Position numbers and translations under genes: made by a program. Source: Yuukianura sp. NJ FZ-2021 (lineage: Eukaryota). Taken from it: a stretch of DNA of 64,000 nucleotides. Location of the stretch: assembly GCA_046563655.1 (NCBI GenBank), contig CM102290.1, forward strand, positions 13,454,001 to 13,518,000, read 5' to 3'. Shown here in pieces: positions 12,495-62,960 of the stretch (the first letter of the stretch is position 1; the number at the start of each line of letters is the position of its first letter). The notes under the pieces were generated by a model. That model did not search any database and had not been told where the DNA came from. It saw only the letters and a list, made by a program, of their open reading frames with translations.

Positions 12495-15400
12495 ATGTCG
12501 GTAGCCAGTAGCTGTGGAGCTGACGATGGTGACCCGTATGCCATCAATGGAATCCATTTCAATCGCGACATGTTCATCAGTAAAATTGTTCAGGTAACAT
12601 TGACATTTGACAATGCCAGAAAGCAAAGACGTCTCCTGTAGCTATTGATTTTGTGTATCTGTCAACAGGAATATCCACTGGACAAACTAATGCAAACAGA
12701 AAAGAAGTTGATACGGGAGATTGGTGACCTTGGATCTGATATGCAAACGTTAGTGTATGAAAACTACAATAAATTTATTCTAGCTACGGATACGATTAGG
12801 AAAATGAAGATGGATTTTAAAGAGATGGAGGATAAAATGAGCCTTCTTTCGGAGAATATTGCCAAAATCACTGAAAGTTCTACAAAGATAGCCGGTAATT
12901 TGAAGGTAAGTTTACTGCAATCAATTTTACAAACATAATGAAGTCGACGTACTAATACTAATTGCAATTAAATTATTTGTAATTCACAGGAGAACAGACA
13001 GAAGGTTAGCAAGTACTTCAGTATACATGAGTTACTGAAGAAACTCAAGTTTCTCTTTGAGCTTCCAAATACATTGAAACAGCATTCGGAAGAGAGTAAC
13101 TACGAAGAGGTATCAACAACTGAATGAAACTTTAGCTAATGTCATAATCATGTTATTTATATTGTTTAGGCTGTTAGGTGTTACCTGAATGGTCTGCAAT
13201 TCATGGACGAATTCAAACGATTTCCTAGCCTGGAAGCGATTAAGGTGGATTGTCAAGAAATTGTGGCTCGAATTCGGGCTGATTTGTACGAAGATTTTGA
13301 AGATGAGGATGTACGATTCAATTATAAGGCAGAGCAATACAATGCTAATTCAGTCTAAAATTATTCGTTATTTCTTCTGTTCCAACGTTTAGAAGTCGTC
13401 ACAAGATTTGACACGAAATGTTGCACTTCTGGTAAACTTGAAGGAAGACCCTGTACTACTAGCGGACCGATTTTTGAAAAATTCGTTGCCAAAGCTAGAT
13501 ACCAATTTAGAGTCCCTCCGGACAGCCAGCAATCCAAACGTATGTAAATTAACCTAGTTACACTAAATTCCGGCTCATAACGCTCGGGATATCCACAAAA
13601 TTTGAACTCAATATACTAAACGTTTATGGTTGCTGATTTTAGGTTCCCTTGGATGAATTTATGGAGCTCAGTTGCGGAATATTTTTGAGTAACCTAAGTT
13701 TTGTAGTAGCTTCCTTTTCTCAAGCATTTATACAAGCAACAGAGTAAGTACTGTAAAATAATCATTGGTAAACACATGATGAGGGCTGTAAGCCACTTCT
13801 GTCCCCTCAAATCTCAATTTGCCCCAGGTATTTATGACATGATGGTAAAAAATGTAATACATTGTGCATTTTTTTTGCCATCATTTCATAAATACCTGGG
13901 GCACCTGGAGATTTGCGGTGGCAGAAGTGGCTTACAGCCCTCATCAAACACATGACTTGAACAAATACATTTCAATGATCATTTCAGGCTATCCGAGGAA
14001 TCTAAGGAGGACTCTCAAAATACATTACAGAAGTTCGTACTGCAACTACTGGATGCCTTTTTAGACATCATGGAGTCAAGGTTGACAATAGAAGTAAAAA
14101 CTTTAGTGGACCAAGATCCGGAACTTAGAGTCTCCTTCTTGAAGACTCTGGATAGACTTTATCGTCGTCTTATGGCCATGGGAACTGTTATAGCAAACAC
14201 AGATTTCACATCGTAAGCAACTTAAAATCCTATTGGTTGATGTGCTGAATAAAATGATAATTGACAATTCTGTTACAGGTTAGGATTAACATTAATTGCA
14301 AAGATTACTCAACTGGATGCTGAATTGAGTCTGGAACGAGTGAAGACCTCTTATGAAAAATCAGTCAAAGAATCTGGATTTGAAATGAGATCACATCCTG
14401 GATCTAGTCCTGAAATCCTGGGATCCATTTTAGCAACGTTGAAAGAACGTATGAAATCTGGACTTGACAAGTTACGAGACTACACCCACTCTGACTACCA
14501 CTTTTCTCAAAACTCCGAATTTCGTCAACGAGTTGCCATTTCGATAGTACGAGAAGGCTATGTCATAGCCTTTTTCAAGTATCTTATAGACTTTGGCAAA
14601 CGTTTGCTTGACGACAAAAACTGCGACAAACTAACATGGCTACTTATAGCAAAGCTGTACTTGGAGATTGAGATGAGTACTGTTGCATATATGGTAAGCT
14701 TAGCCAATATTCTTTATTTTCATTATCAAGTGCAATTTACATTCTAGCGCGACACATTTTGTTTGTTTTAGGTAAACTCTGTCGAAGCTGAGTATGACAT
14801 AAAACGGGACAGAAGAAATAATCAATGGAATGTTACGAATGTTGCCGACATCACAGCAGCCTTCGGTGTAACCGCCAAGAAACTCGTGGAAGAGTTCGTA
14901 AGCTGCCAAGGGAATGAAATAGGAGAGGTGAGTTTTGAAAAAAAGAAGAAGAATTTTTGAGTAATTTGAGTAAAAAAACTAATGAAACTCTTTTTTTTTT
15001 GGCTCCAGTTAATGAGAGAAGGAGTTACGACCAAGAATTTAATATCTGTGACGACAGATCCTACTGGACCACAGCCTCAGATGAGAAAAATTGTTGACAT
15101 TTTGACAAAGTTAGAGAAATACGTCGAGTCAATATTTCCAGACACAGATCTCCTGGCTAGTCTGAAGAGCGAGAAATCATCGGATTCTTCAAAACGGTCG
15201 TACAGGTTAGTTTTTTTTTCAAAAAAAAATCGAACAATGATGATAACAATTTCTCGAAATGTTTGATTTTTAGCACACTTCCCAGTGGTGGTGTTAGCAG
15301 CAAAAGCGTTCCTATGCAAAGATCTGCTTGGTCCAACAATTATGACCCCAACATGTCATCCAACATTCAAAAGTTGTTTTCAGAAAAAGTGGAGATATTT

Positions 15401-15838: not shown

Positions 15839-17586
15839 TGTCACAGCATGCTTAAGTAATTATTCGTTCAGATCAGTTTGAATGACCGGCGGACTGATTT
15901 TGATTCTCAGTTGTCAAATCCGTGTCAAAAAATAATTTTAAACATTTAATTATATTTTATTTCTACTTTTGAAGAAGAAATAGGTAATGAGGTGCTAGTT
16001 TTTACATTCGATCATTATTTAACAAACAAAATTAATCAGCTTGTTACAGTAATACATTAAGCAGTTTTGCTCAAATCTTCATGTCACCATGTACAGAAAA
16101 ACCTCTCTTATAGCAACCCTCCCCGATACCGTGAACTCTCTCATTGCATCACAGCGGTATCGTACTACCCAAAGTCAATATAGTTGATTCTAATTATAGT
16201 TGACTTTAAAGTTAACTTCCCGCCAAAAACTTAGGCAGTGTTGCTTTGACAGTGATTGTGATTTTTATTAGTCGTTACGTTACACATAGGGGGTGCGATG
16301 TGTTTTGTGTTGTTTTTTTCTAAACATTTAAAATCTAGTAATTTTCGGCTCAATGCGGTAGTACGTTTTTGTATTAGTATTTGGTAAATATGTGCAAATG
16401 TGATTGTGTTTTTATTTTTTTGAAAGTGTAAAGTTGAAGGTGAGCATTCTACAGATTTAATTGACGTCGGTGTCAGCTTCAGCAATTATGAACAAAGCGG
16501 TTTCCCTGCTTTCTTTTGGAACACTTAATTTCATCCTTCTCTTCCACGCACAGTACACAGCAGTGACGAAAGCAGCTTCACATGAAAATAAAGAGTAAAC
16601 GATATGAAATGAGAATAGTCAAAAAAATTGTAACGAATGCGATAGTGTTAGGCGTCACAAAAGGCGACATTTGAGCTGTGGTGTTCATATTACGTTCATG
16701 TCAACTTGATCATTGTCAGGGTGTTTTTCGTATTTCGTTGTTCATCTGTTGCAACTCCTGTTGGAGTAGTGCAGCTAGATAAGAGGAAAATATTACCTAA
16801 GACAATGAATCCTCCGCAGAAGCCGGCAATCGCTGCTGGCCAAAAACTGCCCTCTTCTTCAGCGGCCTTCCCCACGACCCCCTCGACCACTTCTCCAGTA
16901 CTGCTCCGCAGAGATCTTTGGCGAGAAGACAACATACATATGAAGCTCCGACTCGGCCTCCGGTGGAGAAAAAAAGAACTACAAGGAGTGTTTTGAGAAG
17001 TCAGTTAAGGGTGGTACACACAACTTTTTCTATTCACTGCAGTCCCACTGCATAGTCTCCAAAGGTAAACTCAGTCTATGCGTGTGTGCACTACCCTTAA
17101 CCTTAATTCTCACAGTCTCCACCAGAGGTCGAGTCGGAGCTTCATATGTATGTGTCCAGACTCGCCAAATAGCTCTGCAAACAAGGCCTCCCTGCAAAGA
17201 AAAAGTTGAATGTACAACATAGAATGAAAGCGGTAAACATCTTGCTTTATGTGACGAGAATTGTAGTAGAAGGATTAAATTCAAATTTCCGTACTTACCG
17301 ATTTTCTGGGCACTTCCAAGCTCGGTAGATGGCTCCGCGAAGAGCCTTGATGTTGTTTGGATCTTCGCACATGCCCTTGACCCACACGCAGGAGGCATTG
17401 ACGCAGGCAACACAGGAGCCCAGCAATTCTTCGCAGGGGCCTGGGTAGTCCATTTCTACAAAGACTAAAGTGTTCTAAAATCTCTTGTTTTTTTTGTCAT
17501 TCGTGCAACTGGTGTTAGTTTAGGCTTAAGTAAGTTTAGTAGCTTAGTGGTTTCGTTAAGTTGTTCATTCGCCAACTGAGTGAATA

Positions 17587-17778
17587 GTTCGTAGCGATTA
17601 TGACGTGCAAATCAATCGTCTGAACTGGATCTATGGGCGAGAGACTAATCGTACCATCTAGCAATCTGGTTCCCACCGTAATTTCCCATAGGATACTCGG
17701 CGCTTAAACCAGTGTCATCCGGTAAATCGAATGATTAGACGCCCAGGGGCCGAAACGATCTCAACCTATTCAAAAAAC
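17587..17778 (+). pseudogene. Degenerate 28S rRNA fragment (conserved core, domain II)
   Basis: Colinear match to the remembered LSU core: CGTAGCGATT.TGACGTGCAAATC, GACTAATCG.ACCATCTAG, CTGGTTCCC, ATCCGGTAAA.CGAATGATTAGA, GGGGCCGAAACGATCTCAACCTATTC, with scattered substitutions. Confidence 0.9.
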
Positions 17779-18702
17779 AATGAAGGAAGAGTTCGCTTAC
17801 CTTGTGTTGGAGTGGATGTTGTGCGTAAATGAAGATGGATGTGACGACGAGTTACTGCTGAGTGAATGTTGTAGTAATTAGTTGAGTAATTGGTAAGTAT
17901 GTTTGATGTGTGAATTTGAGTTGAGTGAATGTTTAGTTTTGATCGAATGAATGTGTTGTGTGGAGAGTGGAAGGTGCGCGCTTTTTTTTTGTAATGGGGC
18001 AACGGCAGGATGGGAGAGACTAGTCCTCGGAAACTAGAGATTCTGAGTCGCAGTCGCATCTGAGGGTTTTAGTCTCTCTTCTCCCTTAGGGATGGGGAAA
18101 GGTTCAAATCCAGCTGGATATCCACTTTTAAATACTTTGTCCAGGCCATAAATCGATAAATCCGGATAAAATTCAGGTGATAAATGGATAAATCCGCATA
18201 CAATGCAGTTTCTGATGGACGAAATTGAGTTTAGGCCGGAAGAAATCAATAAAGTCCAGATATATCCATCACTTTCGAGGAGAGTGGAAGAAGTATTTTA
18301 TCCATACAGCAACACTGAACTTAGCTTTTACCAAATAAAAAAAATTACCAAACTAACGCAATTTTACGAAGGCACTGGTCGTGAGTTTCGTAAAATTCAA
18401 AAACGTTGCGTTTGACGGTATCCCGCCGGGAAAAAAAAAGAGTTCATAAAAGAGAAGTTCTTCTGTATTTATATTTCTATCAACTCTTTTTCCTGACATG
18501 AGTATGTATTAACAATGTTGCTAGATATCCACTTTTTCGACATTTCATCCAAGGCTGATATCCAGTGGTAGAAACGGACGAAATGGAGAAACCCAAAGGG
18601 GTGGAGCTTTGCCCTAGGGCTTTGAATTCATTGAATACAAGCTTTAAAAAATGGAAATATACTCCATATACGAAGTAAATATCGTCTTACAAATACTTTT
18701 TC

Positions 18703-18890: not shown

Positions 18891-20233
18891 AGTTTGAATT
18901 TTTCTTGAATTTCACGCTAAATTTTTAATTTCTTCCATCCACTCATAGTTTCGTCCATTTGGATATCCAGTGGAAGTAGCAATTAATCCACTGGACGTTT
19001 AAGCGTCCAACAACACTGTGTGTTAACCTAAAAGTCTTGGGAGTATCCATTGCATTGGAGTGGGTGGATTTGGATCCAGGTGATTTGGTCTAATTAAGTG
19101 CGAGGCCAGGTATGAATGGAGGTCATTCAACAGTTCAAACGGAGGAGCTCAGACGAAATGACTTGGGAGCTTATTTTAAGCTTAAGTGGCCTCATGTAAC
19201 AAAAGGTGGAGACAAGGCATGGAAGTTCTGTTTTGTGATGAAGATGATGAAGTAGTACATAAATTAGAGCAAAACGGCATTACTATTCTTCTCCGCCAAA
19301 GAATGGGAAGTTTGTGGAGACTGAACGGTGAACATAAGCTGTTGTGGTAACTCGTAGAATGGAAATTTGAACAACGTTGTCCAATATCATCATCACTTCA
19401 TCTTCCCAAAGAGTCGTTTTCTTATGAATGTTTTATGCAATAGGACCACCATCCACTCTTCTTCTAAATTGTATCTATGTTGAGTAGCTAAAACTGAAGT
19501 TTAGTAAACCTATATGCCTGCTACTGTTTGAATTTCCCTGGTTACCGTGTGGAGACAACTCCCCAGTATTCCAATACTATACTTGATGAATATTCAATCA
19601 ACCAACACACCTGTGCCATATGGACCACCACACTCTTAGTATTACTCAAACCTACCACAGCCAAAACGCTCCTGGAAACACGAATTCAGTCCCCAATTGC
19701 GGTTTTCAGCAGACACACACTAAACCAAGTCTTCCGCAATTTCAAACACCAGTACTTCCAGGCCAGAGCCACCGCAGTCCCACCTGAACAAACACGACAA
19801 CGCATTGCGAACTCCAAATTTTCTGGAATTCGGTTCGGTTCGGAGTAGGTTCATACGCTGGCAAAACTGCGCTGGCGCTGATTTGGAAGCTGGAGGAAGA
19901 AAAAGCTGGAACTGCGGGGACGAAAGCTGTCGTTCTTGGAGCTATTCGGCATAATCTAGGCGGACTTTTCGGACGTTTTCGCACATTTTCGGACATTCGG
20001 TGTCCGCACTTTGCAGTGACAACCAATGGCGACATCGGGCGTAAGAAGGTAGCTGAACTCCGATCGGAGCGTGGTCTGAAATTGGAGCAGCCCATAGCTA
20101 GAATTCACGTTTTTCGAGCATCACGAATATCCTGATGCGGAAGGACTTTTGAACAGCATTGGACTTTCTTCAATTTTGAAAAAAATGAATTTGGAATTTT
20201 GAAATTTTCAGAACACCTCTCAGATCTCATGTC

Positions 20234-20299
20234 GTTTGTGACCGTTCTAATGGGCAGTACAATTTTTACAAAATTTTGCTCGTGAGTCCGATCGCAAAC
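20234..20299 (+). ncRNA. mir-2001: pre-miR-2001 (mature 5p about 20236-20257)
   Basis: TTGTGACCGTTCTAATGGGCA is nearly identical to remembered miR-2001 and pairs with TGCTCGTGAGTCCGATCGCAAAC (20277-20299); clustered with miR-252. Confidence 0.88.
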
Positions 20300-23200
20300 T
20301 TTGTGTTGAACTCTGAAACTTCAACGGCATTTCTACATTTTACATCTTCCGAGAATGAGACACTGGATTTGATTCCTTTTGGCTACATTTTTGAATAGTA
20401 TTATACAAATTTAATTCGAAATTGAAGTTTTTTCTTTTGTTTGAAAACGATTTTGATATATTTCTTACCAAAGTCTAATTTTAGGCACACTTTATTCGGA
20501 AATTGTAATTAAAGCATTATTGAAATTTTGTTTGTTTAAACTGCCTAACAGAATTCTTAGAACTTTTGAATAAACAAAGTGCAGGTTTACCTTTATAAAC
20601 TAACGTTATGCATTTTATTATACGTGAACTAAATCATGTTGCCAAAATTTGAAAATGAAAGATTTTGAAAACGAAAAGAATTTTGGTTTTGGATTTTCAT
20701 CAGTTACTAAAAAGTTGCAGTAAAAAGTAAGAGTTGCTGCGTTCTACTAGCGATGTCTTCCAAACATCGCGAACCAGTTTCCGGGTTGATGGAAATTCTC
20801 TAAACAATTTTTTTGAATTCTGCATTCACTTTTTTTTATAATGAAAATTCGGAAATTATACATTAAAAAAATTTTTTAAACTAAATCAAAACTTTTGTAG
20901 AAAGAAAACTTCTAAGCTGATACCACGAAAATTGTTGAGTTTCAGAGGAACAATTTGCTATAATTTTCCTTTGTTTATTTTTAAACCTAAACAAAAATGG
21001 AAGTTTCAGTGACAAAAAACGTCAGCCGCGATGCTCTAGAATTTGCACAAACGAATGCCTTAAGTTTATGCTGAATTGAAACAAGAGTCGAGAATTTGAC
21101 AATTCTGATTGAATTGAATCCACTTAAGAACCAAAGGAAGTTCGGATTTCATTCTCATGATTCACAAAGTCACTAGAATTTGAATCGTAGAGGCTATTTT
21201 TTGGTTTTGGGAAGATGCCAATCGACAGTCATGTCTAGGAAATCCGATCTCTGTCTGAATGAGATGAGTCCACTTTTGAATATCCTATTTTAAATTTTAT
21301 GGTTAGGCAATGCTCTTGTTATACTTTTTGGAACAAGGGGTGGACAATCAAAAAAAAAAGTTCATGTTCTGGAATTCATGACTTCTTGAGCGTCCCACTT
21401 TGCAACTTAGTTCATACAGTAGAGTGTGGAGGTTTAAATCAAAATTTCAATTTCAATTTTGATGCTGCAGAATTGAACACTTCAAAGCAATGTACTGCCG
21501 ATAGCTTTTCATCCACTCTGCGCAAGTTATAAAACTAACTTTCCGCTAGCTCGCAAGAAAAAACCATTTTTAACATTGACAGCAGCCTCAAATGTGCCAG
21601 AAGATTTTACTTTGGCCTCACCGCTAAATTTTATACAGAGTTCATGATTTCGGCTTAAATTAAAACCCAAACAAACAAAATTTCGATAAATCTCAGTTCA
21701 AATTTTTTTTTAAATTCCAATTTTCAAAATATTTTTTGAATAAAACTATGCAATGCGTACGTTTAGACTTTAGCATGTTCACCTCCTCTTGTAGAAATTA
21801 TGATGCTCTCATGTTGAAATTATGATGTTGTCGGATCCACTGTATTTTGGTTCATCTTGTAAATTTTTTTTGAAATAAAATTACATGTAATTTTGTAAAC
21901 AATTTGTTATTTTGAAATGGAAAGGACTTTTGGTTTAAAGGGCTTTAATTTTTTTTAATTTTTGGGTTTTCATTCAAGTCAAATTCCAAAAACGCCAACT
22001 TTTTTTTCCAGTTTGGTAGTTTCTAATTGCAATCCATCATCCACCAGTATATATTGTGGCATGAGAATGCTAAGTATGAGTTTAGAATTATGAACGACTT
22101 TGGGATGATGATGAGGGAGGTCATTTGATTCCTATTAAGATAAACCATTTGACACATTTGTTTCACAAACAAATTCTCAATGCATGGCAGGCAGGAGGCC
22201 CTTAAGTCTCCTTGCATCTTCACACTTCGTCTCTGCATATTGTTAGAAATGTGTTTAAAACATGCTAGGAAGGCCTTCACATCATTTTCTAAACCAAACC
22301 AACGCAAATTTCAACCAGCCCGCAACAGCATCTGCAACCTACTTTTGTCCTAGCTTGTTAAAAAAAATACAACAACTAGCAATTGTTAAAAAAAAATTTG
22401 GTTGCAACTAATTAGTACTGCGACTCATCCACATTTTTTTCCTATTTACTAGGTAATGTAAGCGCCTGTATTTGCTTTTAAAACAGTCCATTTTACCGCA
22501 AACCAGCCTTCGCCTGAACTGATTTGAGCTAAAACTTGAGTAAAATACTCAACTTGCATCGTTTTTTAATAAATTTTCCAAGGATTTTGATAATTTTTTA
22601 GTAGTTGCAGTTGGAAAAATAACATGAAATATGGCGGTGTCTCCTTGCGGTGACCTGTTTGCTCCAACTTTTTTTTTAAAAGTTGAAAGTCTGTTTTGTG
22701 TATTGTTGACAATGGAGATGGTGGAAGGTGGGATGTGGGACTTTGTAGTCATTAGGGAAAAGAGGGGCTTTTGCCATTAGTTAGGCCCATTGTGATCAAC
22801 TATTATTTGGTTATTAGTTGGCATCCCATTTGGACTCCATTTTATTAGAAAATGAGTTTGAGGGGGGCTGGATTCAAGGAAAAGCGGGTTTTTGAAACCA
22901 CAGTGCCAACAATAGCCTTCTTTTGACTGATTCTTTGTTTGATCAGCTACTACTTCAAAGACATCGCACCTTATAACTAACGCTTCCAGGATTCGTGTCC
23001 AATCTGGTCCTCAGAACGAGTCAAAATTGGGAGCGTCCAACTTTCGACCAGCTTTTGGCCAACTTTTGACGAAAAAGTGGAATTTCGGCGGAATTTGGTA
23101 AGTGTATACTTGGAAATTTGGATTTGCTGGTGCAAAATTGTTAAATAGCGAGTATAATTTGAGTTGAATTTAAACCCAGTTTTTGGTTGGTTGAAAATTG

Positions 23201-23710
23201 ACAGATTCTGCTTTTGGATTGTGGATAATTTATTAATGAAATGTGAAGACGTGGAAGGTGAAATGTTCTGTTGAATTAATTTCCATTCTTCTGCTTATGC
23301 CCTCAACACATACGTAGTACATAACTTAATTCCTTCGTCTATTTCCTCACATACACCCAATCCTCCAGAACTTTTTTTAATAATTGAATTGATTTTGACT
23401 AAAATGTTGGTCTAGATTCGCCAAAAAATGAAAAGCTTTACAACGAGATGAGCATGGAAACTTTCATATGCTGGCCTAGCTTCAATTTTCAGAATTTTTG
23501 ACGCTTGTATTCTTCAGAATTAGTCAAAATTCAATGATTTCATAAAGGTTAGGATTTCATGAGGGTAGTGTGTTTTGACTAATGCTTTTTGTTTGACAGT
23601 GGACCACTACTGGTGACCATGATGCTTTCTCTATGACAACGGACGACTGGTGACCATGATGCGGGACTTAACCTAGTTAACGTAGGGGGCAGTGTAACAT
23701 GGGAGTCAAG

Positions 23711-23783
23711 GTGCCTAAGTAGTAGCGCCGCAGGTGAAAGGACTGGTGAAAGTCATCCACCCGCGATCTACTGCTTATGCTAC
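23711..23783 (+). ncRNA. mir-252b: pre-miR-252b (mature 5p about 23715-23736)
   Basis: CTAAGTAGTAGCGCCGCAGGTG pairs with CACCCGCGATCTACTGCTTATG; near-identical to the miR-252b family sequence. Confidence 0.92.
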
Positions 23784-23894
23784 CATGAACTCCACAAACA
23801 GCTCAACCCACACTGCCTCTGCATTACTAGGATACTCCGTGTATGCAATAAGAAACAATACAAATGTATTTTTGATTGTTTTATAAAAATTTAT

Positions 23895-25994: not shown

Positions 25995-26083
25995 CCCTGT
26001 TTCGTTCCTAAGTACTAGTGCCGCAGGAGATTGGATTTTGGCCGATTTGCTCCTGCTGCTCCAGTGCTTATCAATGGAAAGGG
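25995..26083 (+). ncRNA. mir-252a: pre-miR-252a (mature 5p 26008-26029)
   Basis: CTAAGTACTAGTGCCGCAGGAG matches remembered insect miR-252-5p; pairs with CTCCTGCTGCTCCAGTGCTTAT; basal stem continues. Confidence 0.95.
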
Positions 26084-35600: not shown

Positions 35601-36063
35601 GAGGCTTCATGAAAAACCCGGGTAAGATATGTTAAGCTTTTCATACATTTAAGACACGAGGGTCCTGGTGCATATGACGTAAGTCAAAATGTCCAGACAA
35701 TCCTCAGTCTTTTTTTCTACGTATTCAGTAGTAAATACTAATGACGAAGAAGAAGAATTGTAACATGCTGCTGCTGGTTTACCACAAAACATTCATGTTT
35801 CTTATTTAGCAACAGAGTTTTTACAGGGTAAAAAAAGACTGCGGCCAGCGGTTGAGTCAGTCACGCCTTTCCCCAGGAGTCTGGAAATTCGGGAATTTCG
35901 GATGATAAAGCTACCGGCTTCCGGCGGCTATTGATTACGCAAGACACCCGTCTCAGCATGCCATTTCTCAATTCAAGTGCTTTTAGTCATAACTTACCTT
36001 ACACTTACACAAATCTTCGAAGAAACACTGTTTTTGCTTTTTCAATATTTTTTTCAATAACTT

Positions 36064-39000
36064 TAGGAAAATCACTCTTTTTGAATAACATAATTCCAAA
36101 TTCCAAAAAGTTAAAAATTTAGTAGGAAAATCACTCTTTTTAAATAACATAATTCCAAATTCCAAAAAGTTAAAAATTTAGTAGGAAAATCACTCTTGTT
36201 AAATAACATAATTCCAAATTCCAAAAAGTCAAAAATTTAGTAGGAAAATCACTCTTGTTAAATAACATAATTCCAAATTCCAAAAAGTCAAAAATTTAGT
36301 AGGAAAATCACTCTTGTTAAATAACATAATTCCAAATTCCAAAAAGTTAAAAATTTAGTAGGAAAATCACTCTTGTTAAATAACATAATTCCAAATTCCA
36401 AAAAGTTAAAAATTTAGTAGGAAAATCACTCTTGTTAAATAACATAATTATAAATTCCAAAAAGTTAAAAATTTAGTAGGAAAATCACTCTTGTTAAATA
36501 ACATAATTATAAATTCCAAAAAGTTAAAAATTTAGTAGGAAAATCACTCTTGTTAAATAACATAATTATAAATTCCAAAAAGTTAAAAATTTAGTAGGAA
36601 AATCACTCTTGTTAAATAACATAATTATAAATTCCAAAAAGTTAAAAATTTAGTAGGAAAATCACTCTTGTTAAATAACATAATTATAAATTCCAAAAAG
36701 TTAAAAATTTAGTAGGAAAATCACTCTTTTTAAATAACATAATTCCAAATTCCAAAAAGTTAAAAATTTAGTAGGAAAATCACTCTTGTTAAATAACATA
36801 ATTATAAATTCCAAAAAGTTAAAAATTTAGTAGGAAAATCACTCTTGTTAAATAACATAATTATAAATTCCAAAAAGTTAAAAATTTAGTAGGAAAATCA
36901 CTCTTTTTAAATAACATAATTCCAAATTCCAAAAAGTTAAAAATTTAGTAGGAAAATCATTCTTTTTAAATAGCATAATTCCAAATTCCAAAAAGTTAAA
37001 AATTTAGTAGGAAAATCACTCTTGTTAAATAACATAATTATAAATTCCAAAAAGTTAAAAATTTAGTAGGAAAATCACTCTTGTTAAATAACATAATTAT
37101 AAATTCCAAAAAGTTAAAAATTTAGTAGGAAAATCACTCTTGTTAAATAACATAATTATAAATTCCAAAAAGTTAAAAATTTAGTAGGAAAATCACTCTT
37201 GTTAAATAACATAATTATAAATTCCAAAAAGTTAAAAATTTAGTAGGAAAATCATTCTTTTTAAATAGCATAATTATAAATTCCAAAAAGTTAAAAATTT
37301 AGTAGGAAAATCATTCTTTTTAAATAGCATAATTCCAAATTCCAAAAAGTTAAAAATTTAGTAGGAAAATCATTCTTTTTAAATAACATAATTCCAAATT
37401 CCAAAAAGTTAAAAATTTAGTAGGAAAATCACTCTTTTTAAATAACATAATTCCAAATTCCAAAAAGTTAAAAATTTAGTAGGAAAATCACTCTTGTTAA
37501 ATAACATAATTATAAATTCCAAAAAGTTAAAAATTTAGTAGGAAAATCACTCTTGTTAAATAACATAATTATAAATTCCAAAAAGTTAAAAATTTAGTAG
37601 GAAAATCACTCTTTTTAAATAACATAATTCCAAATTCCAAAAAGTTAAAAATTTAGTAGGAAAATCACTCTTTTTAAATAACATAATTCCAAATTCCAAA
37701 AAGTTAAAAATTTAGTAGGAAAATCATTCTTTTTAAATAGCATAATTCCAAATTCCAAAAAGTTAAAAATTTAGTAGGAAAATCACTCTTGTTAAATAAC
37801 ATAATTCCAAATTCCAAGAAATTTAAATTATGTAGGAAAATCACTCTTGTTAAATAACATAATTATAAATTCCAAAAAGTTAAAAGTTTAGTAGGAAAAT
37901 CACTCTTTTTAAATAACATAATTCCAAATTCCAAAAAGTTAAAAGTTTAGTAGGAAAATCATTCTTTTTAAATAACATAATTCCAAATTCCAAAAAGTTA
38001 AAAGTTTAGTAGGAAAATCACTCTTGTTAAATAACATAATTCCAAATTCCAAAAAGTTAAAAATTTAGTAGGAAAATCATTCTTTTTAAATAGCATAATT
38101 CCAAATTCCAAAAAGTTAAAAATTTAGTAGGAAAATCACTCTTGTTAAATAACATAATTCCAAATTCCAAAAAGTTAAAAATTTAGTAGGAAAATCACTC
38201 TTGTTAAATAACATAATTCCAAATTCCAAAAAGTTAAAAATTTAGTAGGAAAATCACTCTTGTTAAATAACATAATTATAAATTCCAAAAAGTTAAAAAT
38301 TTAGTAGGAAAATCACTCTTTTTAAATAACATAATTCCAAATTCTAAAAAGTTAAAAATTTAGTAGGAAAATCATTCTTTTTAAATAGCATAATTCCAAA
38401 TTCCAAAAAGTTAAAAATTTAGTAGGAAAATCACTCTTGTTAAATAACATAATTCCAAATTCCAAAAAGTTAAAAATTTAGTAGGAAAATCACTCTTGTT
38501 AAATAACATAATTCCAAATTCCAAAAAGTTAAAAATTTAGTAGGAAAATCACTCTTGTTAAATAACATAATTATAAATTCCAAAAAGTTAAAAATTTAGT
38601 AGGAAAATCACTCTTTTTAAATAACATAATTCCAAATTCCAAAAAGTTAAAAATTTAGTAGGAAAATCACTCTTTTAAATAACATAATTCCAAATTCCAA
38701 AAAGTTAAAAATTTAGTAGGAAAATCACTCTTGTTAAATAACATAATTATAAATTCCAAAAAGTTAAAAATTTAGTAGGAAAATCACTCTTTTTAAATAA
38801 CATAATTCCAAATTCTAAAAAGTTAAAAATTTAGTAGGAAAATCACTCTTGTTAAATAACATAATTATAAATTCCAAAAAGTTAAAAATTTAGTAGGAAA
38901 ATCACTCTTTTTAAATAACATAATTCCAAATTCCAAAAAGTTAAAAATTTAGTAGGAAAATCACTCTTGTTAAATAACATAATTATAAATTCCAAAAAGT

Positions 39001-40545
39001 TAAAAATTTAGTAGGAAAATCACTCTTTTTAAATAACATAATTCCAAATTCTAAAAAGTTAAAAATTTAGTAGGAAAATCACTCTTTTTAAATAACATAA
39101 TTCCAAATTCCAAAAAGTTAAAAATTTAGTAGGAAAATCATTCTTTTTAAATAGCATAATTCCAAATTCCAAAAAGTCAAAAATTTAGTAGGAAAATCAC
39201 TCTTGTTAAATAACATAATTCCAAATTCCAAAAAGTTAAAAATTTAGTAGGAAAATCACTCTTTTTAAATAACATAATTCCAAATTCCAAAAAGTTAAAA
39301 ATTTAGTAGGAAAATCATTCTTTTTAAATAGCATAATTCCAAATTCCAAAAAGTTAAAAATTTAGTAGGAAAATCACTCTTGTTAAATAACATAATTCCA
39401 AATTCCAAAAAGTTAAAAATTTAGTAGGAAAATCACTCTTGTTAAATAACATAATTATAAATTCCAAAAAGTTAAAAATTTAGTAGGAAAATCACTCTTT
39501 TTAAATAACATAATTCCAAATTCCAAAAAGTTAAAAATTTAGTAGGAAAATCATTCTTTTTAAATAGCATAATTCCAAATTCCAAAAAGTTAAAAATTTA
39601 GTAGGAAAATCACTCTTGTTAAATAACATAATTATAAATTCCAAAAAGTTAAAAATTTAGTAGGAAAATCACTCTTTTTAAATAACATAATTATAAATTC
39701 CAAAAAGTTAAAAATTTAGTAGGAAAATCACTCTTTTTAAATAACATAATTCCAAATTCTAAAAAGTTAAAAATTTAGTAGGAAAATCACTCTTTTTAAA
39801 TAACATAATTCCAAATTCCAAAAAGTTAAAAATTTAGTAGGAAAATCACTCTTTTTAAATAACATAATTCCAAATTCCAAAAAGTTAAAAATTTAGTAGG
39901 AAAATCATTCTTTTTAAATAGCATAATTCCAAATTCCAAAAAGTTAAAAATTTAGTAGGAAAATCACTCTTTTTAAATAGCATAATTCCAAATTCCAAAA
40001 AGTTAAAAATTTAGTAGGAAAATCACTCTTTTTAAATATCATAATTCCAAATTCCAAAAAGTTAAAAATTTAGTAGGAAAATCACTCTTGTTAAATAACA
40101 TAATTATAAATTCCAAAAAGTTAAAAATTTAGTAGGAAAATCACTCTTTTTAAATAACATAATTCCAAATTCCAAAAAGTTAAAAATTTAGTAGGAAAAT
40201 CATTCTTTTTAAATAGCATAATTCCAAATTCCAAAAAGTTAAAAATTTAGTAGGAAAATCACTCTTTTTAAATAGCATAATTCCAAATTCCAAAAAGTTA
40301 AAAATTTAGTAGGAAAATCACTCTTTTTAAATAGCATAATTCCAAATTCCAAAAAGTTAAAAATTTAGTAGGAAAATCACTCTTTTTAAATAGCATAATT
40401 CCAAATTCCAAAAAGTTAAAAATTTAGTAGGAAAATCACTCTTTTTAAATAGCATAATTCCAAATTCCAAAAAGTTAAAAATTTAGTAGGAAAATCACTC
40501 TTTTTAAATGACATAATTCCAAATTTCAAAAAGTTAAAAATTTAG
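36064..40545 (+). repeat. 59-bp AT-rich tandem satellite, about 76 units
   Basis: Unit TAGGAAAATCACTCTTGTTAAATAACATAATTCCAAATTCCAAAAAGTTAAAAATTTAG with a few recurrent variant sites. Confidence 0.99.
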
Positions 40546-45127: not shown

Positions 45128-48100
45128 CTAAAGTGTTACGATCTCAGAATGAAACGCTGTCGGTTTCCCACGTATGTCTTCCAGATTGATTTGAGGTCGA
45201 ACCAATTTGTTAAATTTCTGAATTTCAAAAAAATAAATTTCAAAAATTGGAAATCTTGTTTTGAAAATCGTAAAATGTCTAACCTGCTGGAAAGTTCCTG
45301 GTGTAGTGACCCATAGGTAAATGGCGTACCCTGGGATGCATAGCATAGAGGAGAGGGCCGTAAACCATCCAAAGATGTGAGCAAACACTGGATAATGGTA
45401 GTCCATGTAAGTGACCTCTGACCACTGCAGAAATTTGAAGACAAAGACGCCCTGCAACAATATTTGGTCAATACGGTAAACAATTTGAAAAGAAAAACAG
45501 AATAGGATACTAATATTTCGAAAAAGTTAAATCAAAGTTTCTGATATGGCACCCAAAAATGCGATTGCTTGAATGAAGGTTTGTAAACCAAAAAAAAAAA
45601 CTTTTTCTACACCAGGTTGTCCAATAACTCGAATTTTTAAATTTCTTGTCATAATTTTCAAAATTTAAACCGGCTCCATTTCCATGGCAACTTTTAAAGT
45701 TTTTAAACTTTTCTTATATTCCTATACGATTTCGGAACAAATTCGGCAAAACGGCGCTTCGATTTTTTGCGATTAAAATATCATTTTGTATCAATTTTTG
45801 GGCGTAGATTCCGAATCTGAAATACGTTTTTGGCGGTCCTTCCTGGTAAGATTAATTAATTAACATTTTAATTAACAGTGAGTGCGTTTCATATGTAGAA
45901 TGAGTGTGTAACCAATGGAGATTCGAATTTATTGCTGTTATATGCTAACCAAACCTAACGCGCGCCTTCGGCGCGGAGATATAACAAACAACAATCATTG
46001 GTTTCCGTTGGTTACACCACAAATTCTCATTCTGTATATCAAATTCACACTGTTAATTAGAATCTTAATTAATTAATCTCACCAAGAAGGAGGTGTGACC
46101 GCCAAAAACGGATTTCAGATTCGGAATCTGCACCCAAAAATTGATATAAAACGACATTTTAATCGTAGAAAATCGAAGCGCCGTTTTGCCGAATATAAGC
46201 CACGATTTCAAGTGTTCAAAGTTTGAAAAAAATTGAGGTAAAAAGCATATACAAAATTGGAAAAATGGGGGAACAGATGAAAGCAAGATTTTTGTAAACT
46301 CCGAGTTATTGGACAACCTGTTGTAGAAAATAAATTTCCGTTGTAAGGGAACCTTGGACAGAACTTACGAAGCACATGGCAGGGCAACTGATGACCCAAG
46401 TGAACTTCCACCATGGCAACGGGTAGTAACCAATCATGTCCCGAATTGCTTCGTAGAATCGATCCACTCCAAAGGCCCATGAAAAAGCAATGCACTCGAA
46501 GAATATGACCCAGAGGAGAGCCAAGCCACTTACGGCATACTCGTTCAGCAGGTTGAAAACAAACATTCCGCCCTGAAACAAATTGACCTTTGACCTCTAA
46601 TTTCACTATTCAATTTGTCATTTAAAAGTTACCCGGGTCACACAGGACAGTCCAACGAGGTAAGAGAGGAGACAGACGACAGCTATGAACAGTTCCTTGC
46701 GTCGACGCAGACGATGTGGCCATTCATCAACCATAGCCGTAATGAATCCCTCCAGAGTGCAGAACTGCGAGTCAAGGCCAATGAACAGAAGCATGATGAA
46801 GAAGAGGCATGACCAGAGCGACGGCAGAGGGAGCTGCAGAATGGCCGACGGATACACCAAGAACGCAAGTCCCGGCCCTGAAACCAACGAAAAAGTCCGT
46901 TCGGTTAAAAAACTTCACAATTTTCTGAAAAATTGTCAAGTTTTTCGAAAATTACTCAATTTTTCAGAAATTACTAACAAATTTGTCAGAACTTACTCAA
47001 TTTTTCAGTAATTACACAGAAATTTTTTTAGAAATTACTCAGAAATTTTTTGAAAAAACTTTCAAAACTGGTATAGTTACCCGATGCAGCGACCTCTTCC
47101 ACTGGTTTATTTTGTGTCACTGACATAAATCCGATAACCGAAAACACAACGAATCCCGCAAAAAAGCTTGTGCACGAATTGATGATGCAAACCAAGATGG
47201 CGTCCCTTCAAGACAAAAAGAAACAAGTTCCAAGTTAAAGTAAATGCATTTAGAGCAGATCGCTGCTGACAAAGACATGAAAAATGCCACATGGCCATCA
47301 AAGTTCCGCCGGAGCTTTGGATGACCTTGACATGTAAGCTGCTTAGACACAAGATGAGTGACAGGAATAGGCTTAAGGGCTTAAGTGAGTTCCCACAGTT
47401 GACTTACTTGTAGACATTGTTGTTGTACTTGTTGTATGATCCGAGGGCATTGAGTGTTCCTAAACCAAGACCATAAGAGAAGAAGATCTGCGTCACTGCG
47501 TCCACCCACACTTGCGACTCTCCCAACTTGGACAGTCGTGGATACAAGTAGAAAGAGATGCCTTGAGCCGCTCCAGGCAGAGTGATTCCACGGATTAGGA
47601 GAATTGTGAGGAGAAAGTAGGGGAACAAGGCTGTAAAGTACACGACTTTCCCCGTCCACCGAACGCCTTTCCAGATGCAAAAGTAGCACAGAATCCACAC
47701 CAAAAGAAGCGTCCCGGCCAGTTCCCACCGGATCCCACCAACATCTCCCACACCCGTCGAAATGTCCAAGGCACGGTTTCTAAACAAACACATTTAGCAA
47801 ACACAAAATTAATAAACATTTTCCCCAGTACTTAAGTAGTAAACTAAATAGTACCCTATTTCACGGCGTATATCTCGCACCTTAGTATACCACGCAATGA
47901 GATAAAATAAAGGTAAAACTTGAACTTTGATGATCAACTTTTGCAGCAAGAGATAAACATGTTTATCTTGTTCTCGTTCTTGTTTAAACAAGATAAGCTA
48001 GATAAAATCAGATAAGACGCGGGATATACGCCGTGAAATCGGGTAAATTTTCAAACGACAAAACTTTTGAGATAAATAATTGAGAAAATTGGAAACGTAC

Positions 48101-57277: not shown

Positions 57278-62960
<5,683 letters not shown>

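Follow-up and report, generated by a model that had tools for sequence, protein, structure and literature searches.

Introduction

In yeast introns, downstream stems and zipper stems represent one of the described systems closest to the structure examined here. They are defined from 6 bp upward, have been probed in vivo, and shorten the path between splicing signals (PMC12350175). The hairpin described below, located in a 64-kb stretch of DNA that was analysed as a whole (hereafter, the window), resembles these stems in being a stable stem within an intron which, when formed, would bring the polypyrimidine/branch region near a distant 3′ AG and hide the intervening AGs. However, it differs from them in consisting of an interrupted duplex of about 120 bp that would have arisen through duplication, in belonging to an animal gene, in being known from sequence alone, and in having one arm that carries the normal branch-point zone.

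The hpRNA loci of Drosophila are also built on inverted repeats. Their hallmarks are Dcr-2-dependent small RNAs, a primary transcript that goes up in dcr-2 mutants, and homology between the arms and a target gene (PMC10317233). Like these loci, the hairpin consists of an inverted repeat, which seems to come from the duplication of a segment beginning with an acceptor-like site, and it could yield long dsRNA; unlike them, it has short arms, sits inside the intron of a coding gene, and has been recognised only through its nucleotide sequence. Inverted Alu pairs provide a further precedent, in that complementary sequences within one pre-mRNA could alter exon use. In such pairs, both repeats are intronic transposon copies flanking an exon (PMC13019027), whereas in the present case the candidate exon would be one of the arms, and the repeat corresponds to no known transposon.

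Two other groups of elements show a similar symmetry. The internally symmetrical stwintrons and related introns of the Hypoxylaceae share with this locus an inverted internal symmetry and what looks like the succession of a short canonical intron and a second spliceable unit; however, they form a fungal, multi-copy family of similar sequences (PMC8469720), while the hairpin is a single animal locus whose nested splicing is putative. With MITEs and foldback transposons, exemplified by the element at 13778–13945 of the window, the hairpin has in common a hairpin-forming inverted repeat of similar size, a position inside an intron, and a genome rich in such elements. That element has an 8-bp TSD and 12 of 12 matching termini; the hairpin has neither, and no high copy number was seen for it. 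Inverted repeats abound in this genome. With moderate confidence, the hairpin is regarded here as a single-locus inverted duplication that is looped out and removed with its intron, and not as a dedicated regulatory RNA.

Structure and Stability of the Hairpin

The hairpin is genuine, very stable and statistically striking, and it is found in an ordinary setting, between two putative exons of a minus-strand gene (Table 1). At its core, the initial annotation had reported a perfect 24-bp stem within a 38-bp helix, and a pair-by-pair count agrees with both statements: all positions of 16932–16955 and 17130–17153 are paired, the first non-Watson-Crick pair being 16956/17129, and the complete main helix (38 nt, 95% complementary) comprises 36 Watson-Crick pairs, one G-U pair and one mismatch, whichever strand is read. 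The imperfect extension to 16908/17178 that had been described corresponds to the outer helix, with 16 of 18 positions paired, and the enclosed second helix to the inner one, where 17 of 19 positions are Watson-Crick pairs and one is a G-U pair. Altogether, the interrupted duplex amounts to approximately 120 bp. The main and inner helices contain four non-Watson-Crick positions, all of them transitions. On either strand, each of these helices has one G-U pair and one mismatch; the mismatches are symmetric between the strands, so that neither strand is favoured.

Table 1. Positions in the window of the parts of the hairpin, of the putative host gene and of a candidate exon.
Feature	Position	Strand	Remarks
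Whole foldback	16908..17178	none	271 nt; weak pairing extends to ~16901–17185
Outer helix, left arm	16908..16925	none	16/18 pairs; TC insertion polymorphism directly behind 16925
Outer helix, right arm	17161..17178		read on the gene strand, contains an acceptor-like TTTGCAG|AG whose AG is 17176–17175
Main helix, left arm	16932..16969	none	38 bp; inverted-pair search and pair-by-pair count
Main helix, right arm	17116..17153	none	inverted-pair search and pair-by-pair count
Left-arm-only stretch	16970..16990		~21 nt; unpaired bulge; pyrimidine-rich tract when read on the gene strand
Inner helix, left arm	17004..17022	none	inverted-pair search and pair-by-pair count
Inner helix, right arm	17083..17101	none	inverted-pair search and pair-by-pair count
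Putative coding exon, Cys-rich, PSI-like	17299..17453	-	ATG 17453; donor CG|GTAAGT; no strain differences listed
Putative intron holding the hairpin	16901..17298	-	398 nt; joining the flanking exons keeps the frame
Putative exon, acidic linker and first half of transmembrane segment	16797..16900	-	acceptor GGAGCAG|, 9/20 pyrimidines upstream
Putative last coding exon	16457..16575	-	remainder of transmembrane segment, KRR, short tail, stop codon
Candidate 78-nt in-frame cassette exon	17114..17191	-	largely the gene-side hairpin arm; acceptor TTTTTCTTTGCAG|, 15/20 pyrimidines; donor GACT|GTGAGA

The stability of the structure was assessed against dinucleotide shuffles, as had been proposed. As plus-strand RNA, 16900–17185 folds with an energy of −139.6 kcal/mol and a z-score of −14.3; the corresponding values for the minus strand are −148.8 kcal/mol and −12.5, and none of 200 shuffles was as good in either case. 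When the whole intron was folded within a surrounding stretch of 431 nt, the hairpin was retained, with a z-score of −11.9.

Other elements of the initial description fared differently. The hexamers GCATAG and CTATGC are present in the sequence, but remain unused in the minimum-energy fold of the plus strand. The outermost helices that had been suggested, formed by CAATG..CCTCCGC with GCAGGAGGCATTG and by CTCCTGT with ACAGGAG, are matches of 5+5 and 7 bases separated by more than 570 bases; of the 37 inverted pairs listed, the 25 with the greatest length do not include them, their partners sit in the two coding exons, and they look like chance matches. The GC rise noted over 16750–17450 is real (0.484, versus 0.357 and 0.413 in the flanks), mostly because the segment contains the two coding exons (0.568 and 0.577) together with the hairpin (0.465).

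The Host Gene on the Minus Strand

The hairpin lies within what we infer to be a small minus-strand gene of an invertebrate animal, encoding a single-pass membrane protein. The three-exon model has canonical GT/AG dinucleotides at all four junctions, and its product of 125 residues contains no internal stop and reaches 2.28 in its best 19-residue Kyte-Doolittle window. Within this model, the hairpin accounts for 271 of the 398 bases of the first intron, and its base is only 6 bases away from the 3′ AG. The Cys-rich exon matches the Pfam PSI family (PF01437) with an E-value of 0.009 and 16.8 bits, under the gathering cut-off of 23.1. The architecture of the protein presumably resembles that of PTTG1IP-type proteins.

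Searches for relatives of the Cys-rich exon gave no homologue among longer proteins when based on words, and no usable match in a protein atlas. A full HMMER search retrieved three matches at E ≤0.001 among 1.84 billion proteins, all of them spurious (a pair of HEAT-repeat proteins and a protein with internal repeats), and the matches obtained in the PDB were restricted to TPR proteins at E>1, as expected by chance. No convincing candidate for an upstream signal-peptide exon was found within 6.5 kb, suggesting that the ATG at 17453 may be the start of the protein.

Presence in Sequencing Runs and Strain Variation

Five public DNA runs from two studies cover the region, four of which were compared here (X1 to X4) through their DNA contigs. 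The hairpin is present in contigs of all four, representing both studies. In X2, one 15-kb contig spans it entirely, covering 16243–17900; in X1, it is covered by two contigs (16243–16957 and 16928–17795); and in X4, which comes from the other study and carries another organism label, by three overlapping pieces. Its presence in the contigs of the four runs, in one case whole within a 15-kb contig, shows that it is not an assembly artefact. The loose ends observed in X3 at 16913 and 17363 both abut GATC sites, and they were set aside as probable library ligation junctions.

Some contigs, nevertheless, join parts of the hairpin to other flanks. A short contig of X1 (record 3; 81 bases, depth 42 versus 161) carries 16908–16957 with an insertion of TC behind 16925, and has 29 unrelated bases to the left of 16908. 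In X4, one contig (record 21) starts at 16908, and another (record 23) exits the hairpin at 17120 into unrelated sequence. The two foreign flanks, one from X1 and one from X4, gave no match within the window at up to three mismatches. These contigs may represent either a diverged partial copy located elsewhere or a structural allele.

The comparison of X4 with the window lists 23 differences over 1701 bases. The coding bases (378, or 22% of the stretch) hold one of them versus about five expected (binomial P ~0.02), a depletion that supports the existence of a real gene. In the case of the hairpin, which makes up 16% of the stretch, four were found against an expectation of 3.7. Across the runs, the hairpin carries four substitutions. 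A change of G to C at 16995, in X4, breaks a G-C pair, with no change of its partner at 17111 listed, and another change of G to C at 17004, in X2, also removes a G-C pair, with no listed change at 17101. The substitution of A by G at 17041 keeps its pair on the plus strand only, while that of C by T at 17081 touches a pair in the minus-strand fold only, breaking it. Among these four substitutions between runs of one species, none is compensatory and two break G-C pairs. There is no evidence in these data for selection on the structure, and the signs are of drift rather than of maintenance.

At 16415, 16451, 17631, and 17641–17642, the four runs have the same bases, which are not those of the window; the latter therefore represents a slightly different haplotype or strain, or it contains small consensus errors at these sites. 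Around 16243, contigs of X1 and X2 depart from the window, and the sequence they enter has 18 bases in common with the terminal repeat at 59651–59678, while a different contig of X1 continues through this position with the sequence of the window. Such a pattern resembles that of a MITE, downstream of the host gene, which is polymorphic for presence or absence.

Origin of the Inverted Repeat

An alignment of the left half of the hairpin to the right half in reverse complement yields three conserved blocks with indels between them, one of these indels being the stretch of about 21 bases found in the left arm only. Such a pattern is expected of a single segment that was duplicated in inverted orientation and subsequently drifted. 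The arms are approximately 86% identical over 64 nt (blastn). Both of them start with a pyrimidine run followed by GCAG|AG, which indicates that the copied segment would have included an acceptor-like site. The TC insertion found in X1 brings the left arm closer to the right one (GGCGAG-TC), and this suggests that the arms were formerly more similar. Under the model proposed here, some 125–135 bases would have been copied in reverse beside themselves, leaving a centre of about 60 bases, within the putative intron that follows the Cys-rich (PSI-like) exon and precedes the transmembrane exon of the minus-strand gene.

The absence of a TSD and of MITE-type ends, which had been noted before, holds after a scan of all boundary pairs, since no direct repeat of at least 5 bases with matching termini was detected; as a control, the same scan recovered the 8-bp duplication and the 12 of 12 terminal matches of the inverted repeat at 13778–13945. 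The 64-kb window contains no second copy of the hairpin, with blastn at E<0.01 returning only the self match and the matches between both arms, and the exact 24-mer of the stem had no matches in metagenome contigs. Contigs pass from the interior of the hairpin into unique flanking sequence without branching and at ordinary depth (16928–17795 in X1, and the 15-kb contig of X2), so that nothing points to a high-copy family; in contrast, the repeated piece of 46 bases at 17534–17579 matches a contig with a depth of 2748. Foldbacks and MITEs are frequent here, with 19 inverted pairs of at least 24 nt occurring within 1.5 kb of each other in the window.

These results bear on a different possibility, namely that the hairpin belongs to a mobile family with few copies, of the foldback or another non-TIR type, and was inserted at the border between intron and exon, where its 3′ end (...GCAG) would have provided a new acceptor in an introner-like manner. 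The point at which other-flank contigs begin is precisely the base of the strong repeat, 16908 (record 3 of X1 and record 21 of X4), and the distance from the strong acceptor to the exon is 291 bases, i.e., 3 × 97, both of which speak for such an insertion. However, an element of this kind has to be reconciled with the lack of a TSD and of matching termini, with the lack of another copy within the window, and with the ordinary depth at which hairpin contigs enter the unique flank, when the true high-copy piece nearby reaches 2748×. Moreover, the other-flank contig of X4 leaves the hairpin at 17120, which is not the end of the element. All in all, a mobile origin is given only a slim chance. 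The inverted duplication of a local segment is the reading preferred here, although the two other-flank contigs, by hinting at a second, diverged copy elsewhere, speak against a purely local event.

A single locus came out of a protein-guided scan for related loci, and it is a tandem repeat rich in GC rather than a relative. The idea that the arms are what is left of a coding exon belonging to some other gene was rejected, since no family match was obtained and an indel shifts the frame between both arms; Pfam searches with five ORFs running through the arms returned nothing below an E-value of 0.04.

Possible Fates of the Hairpin in RNA

If the duplication is simply part of the intron, the hairpin would be transcribed only within the host pre-mRNA, would fold there as a long imperfect hairpin, and would leave with the intron; its transcription, its folding in vivo, and any effect on splicing are what we infer from this arrangement. 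Once folded, it would occupy 271–285 of the 398 intron bases, and an effective intron of around 115–125 bases would remain. Folding would also place the sole good polypyrimidine tract (17196–17210), with 15 of 20 pyrimidines before the AG at 17193–17192, near the AG of the transmembrane exon (16902–16901), whose upstream 20 bases contain 9 pyrimidines. The internal acceptor-like AG at 17176–17175 and the GTGAGA donor at 17113–17108 would be buried in the duplex, with P(paired) values of 1.00 and 0.78, respectively. Removal of the hairpin with the intron needs no function in small RNAs, editing or lncRNAs. Some features of the locus, however, fit this model less well. Both the intron and its folding are predicted, and the host gene has no detected homologue, with the sub-threshold PSI match as the only family signal. 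The acceptor that the model requires is weak (9/20 pyrimidines), and its usual branch-point zone falls within the stem, where the mean P(paired) is 0.84. The geometry of a stem that separates the branch point from the 3′ splice site would fit if the branch point lay upstream of 17196. In addition, a much better acceptor (15/20) is present just upstream of the hairpin, which, together with the weakness of the required one, means that the hairpin cannot be taken for granted to leave simply with the intron. The in-frame segment of 78 nt with good signals that follows this acceptor is explained at least as well by a cassette exon. According to this alternative, 17191..17114 would be an exon, and the other arm of the hairpin an inverted copy of it at the 3′ end of the next intron, so that pairing of both would conceal the exon together with its GTGAGA donor and lead to skipping, whereas the exon would be included in the absence of the hairpin. 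The segment is in frame and stop-free, and its inclusion would extend the 125-residue protein of the skipped form to one of 151 residues, both isoforms being open; when the acceptor at 17191 is used without the donor, the frame hits a stop after 26 codons. Its acceptor is the best of the region, its donor GTGAGA is near consensus, and the first 107 bases of the intron resemble a complete short intron ending in TTTTTCTTTGCAG|. In the ensemble prediction, the exon and its donor are mostly paired, with mean P(paired) values of 0.83 and 0.78, respectively, and the looping out or masking of exons by RNA stems is already known as a mechanism (PMC13019027). Nevertheless, a stop-free stretch with a length divisible by three is estimated to occur by chance in about 1 of 10 cases, the resulting peptide of 26 residues has no family match, and uncompensated variants break pairs in the secondary helices. 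A cassette exon controlled by the structure is considered unlikely, although it deserves attention. An extended version of it, in which the hairpin would act as a built-in RNA switch, with the exon paired with its own inverted copy, isoform choice dictated by duplex formation, and the duplex possibly feeding Dicer or ADAR as well, is regarded as improbable. Such a switch would make duplex formation dependent on transcription speed, helicases, temperature or editing, and, if Dicer or ADAR were fed, isoform choice would be coupled to dsRNA pathways.

The duplex itself raises the question of whether it is a source of small RNAs or a substrate for editing, as the initial annotation had proposed. 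A near-perfect duplex of 38 bp in a pre-mRNA could undergo dicing or editing, and the hairpin does provide a long inverted repeat able to form dsRNA, since its 38-bp helix, with 24 perfect pairs, is embedded in an interrupted duplex of some 120 bp. An hpRNA, endo-siRNA source or ADAR substrate would imply that the duplex is diced into siRNAs or edited, whether it is carried by the pre-mRNA, by the intron after excision or by an antisense transcript, and that it acts on either the host gene or a paralogous copy elsewhere, and the other-flank contigs hint at related sequence elsewhere that might be such a target. However, the arms are far shorter than the homology of about 200 bp given for one hpRNA (PMC10317233), no homologous target is located within the 64-kb window, the hairpin is intronic and not a transcript of its own, and its arms have drifted to ~86% identity over 64 nt, with uncompensated variants. 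Taken together, this role is seen as quite unlikely. The last alternative, a structured domain of a plus-strand lncRNA or of a primary miRNA transcript that feeds the downstream mir-2001-like and mir-252 hairpins, was suggested by the position of the hairpin, at 3 kb or more from miRNA-like hairpins that are encoded on the strand opposite to the host gene, at 20230, 23707, and 26000; the plus strand, moreover, folds well too (z −14.3). On a plus-strand transcript, the hairpin would be antisense to the host gene, and the transcript would have to run antisense through the coding gene and cross 3 kb that include the start of this gene and a 28S-like fragment. The notion of an lncRNA domain of the miRNA cluster is weakened because the hairpin is intronic and separated from the first miRNA-like hairpin (20230) by the 5′ end of the gene and the 28S-like fragment. 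Furthermore, the mismatches show no strand preference, and Rfam, searched at E-values of up to 10, gave three matches over 16700–18200, none of them on the hairpin on either strand. This alternative is thus held to be very improbable.

Returning to an inverted duplication that leaves with its intron, the hairpin as it stands matters little, given that intronic inverted repeats are common, particularly in this genome with its many foldbacks, and nothing shows a function for this one. If, on the contrary, its gene-side arm were a used exon, the locus would be a clean example from nature in which an exon is silenced by its own inverted copy, the product of a single duplication. Masking of an exon in this way would also bear on the origin of new alternative exons and of new introns.

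Other Features of the Window

A 28S rRNA-like fragment is found on the plus strand just upstream of the putative start of the host gene, at 17511–17661 and 17683–17847. These segments match positions 822–947 (34.8 bits) and 967–1124 (15.6 bits) of the Rfam LSU model, both scores being below gathering. The contig of X1 with a depth of 2748, which is 59 bases long, matches 17534–17579 with six differences, as expected if the true rDNA is a high-copy relative of the fragment.

The MITE at 13778–13945, located 3 kb from the hairpin, has arms of 76 nt, and its 12 of 12 matching termini are flanked by the 8-bp TSD AAACACAT, a length by which we take it to be hAT-like. It occupies a gap between the coding ORFs of a plus-strand gene, which looks to us like VPS51.

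The miRNA-like hairpins of the plus strand lie at 20230–20300, 23707–23787, and 26000–26079. The last one is the only match of the whole window at the Rfam gathering score (mir-252, 71.3 bits). The hairpin at 23707 is mir-252-like, with 41.7 bits against a cut-off of 45, and the one at 20230 shows weak matches to mir-360, mir-2001, and mir-274. The largest inverted repeat of the window is a nested foldback at 45603–46330, with arms of 98, 44, and 35 nt that are 91–92% complementary. Finally, some 4 kb at 36000–40000 are very AT-rich (GC 0.20), with a strong negative GC skew and a positive AT skew that set them apart from the remaining window.
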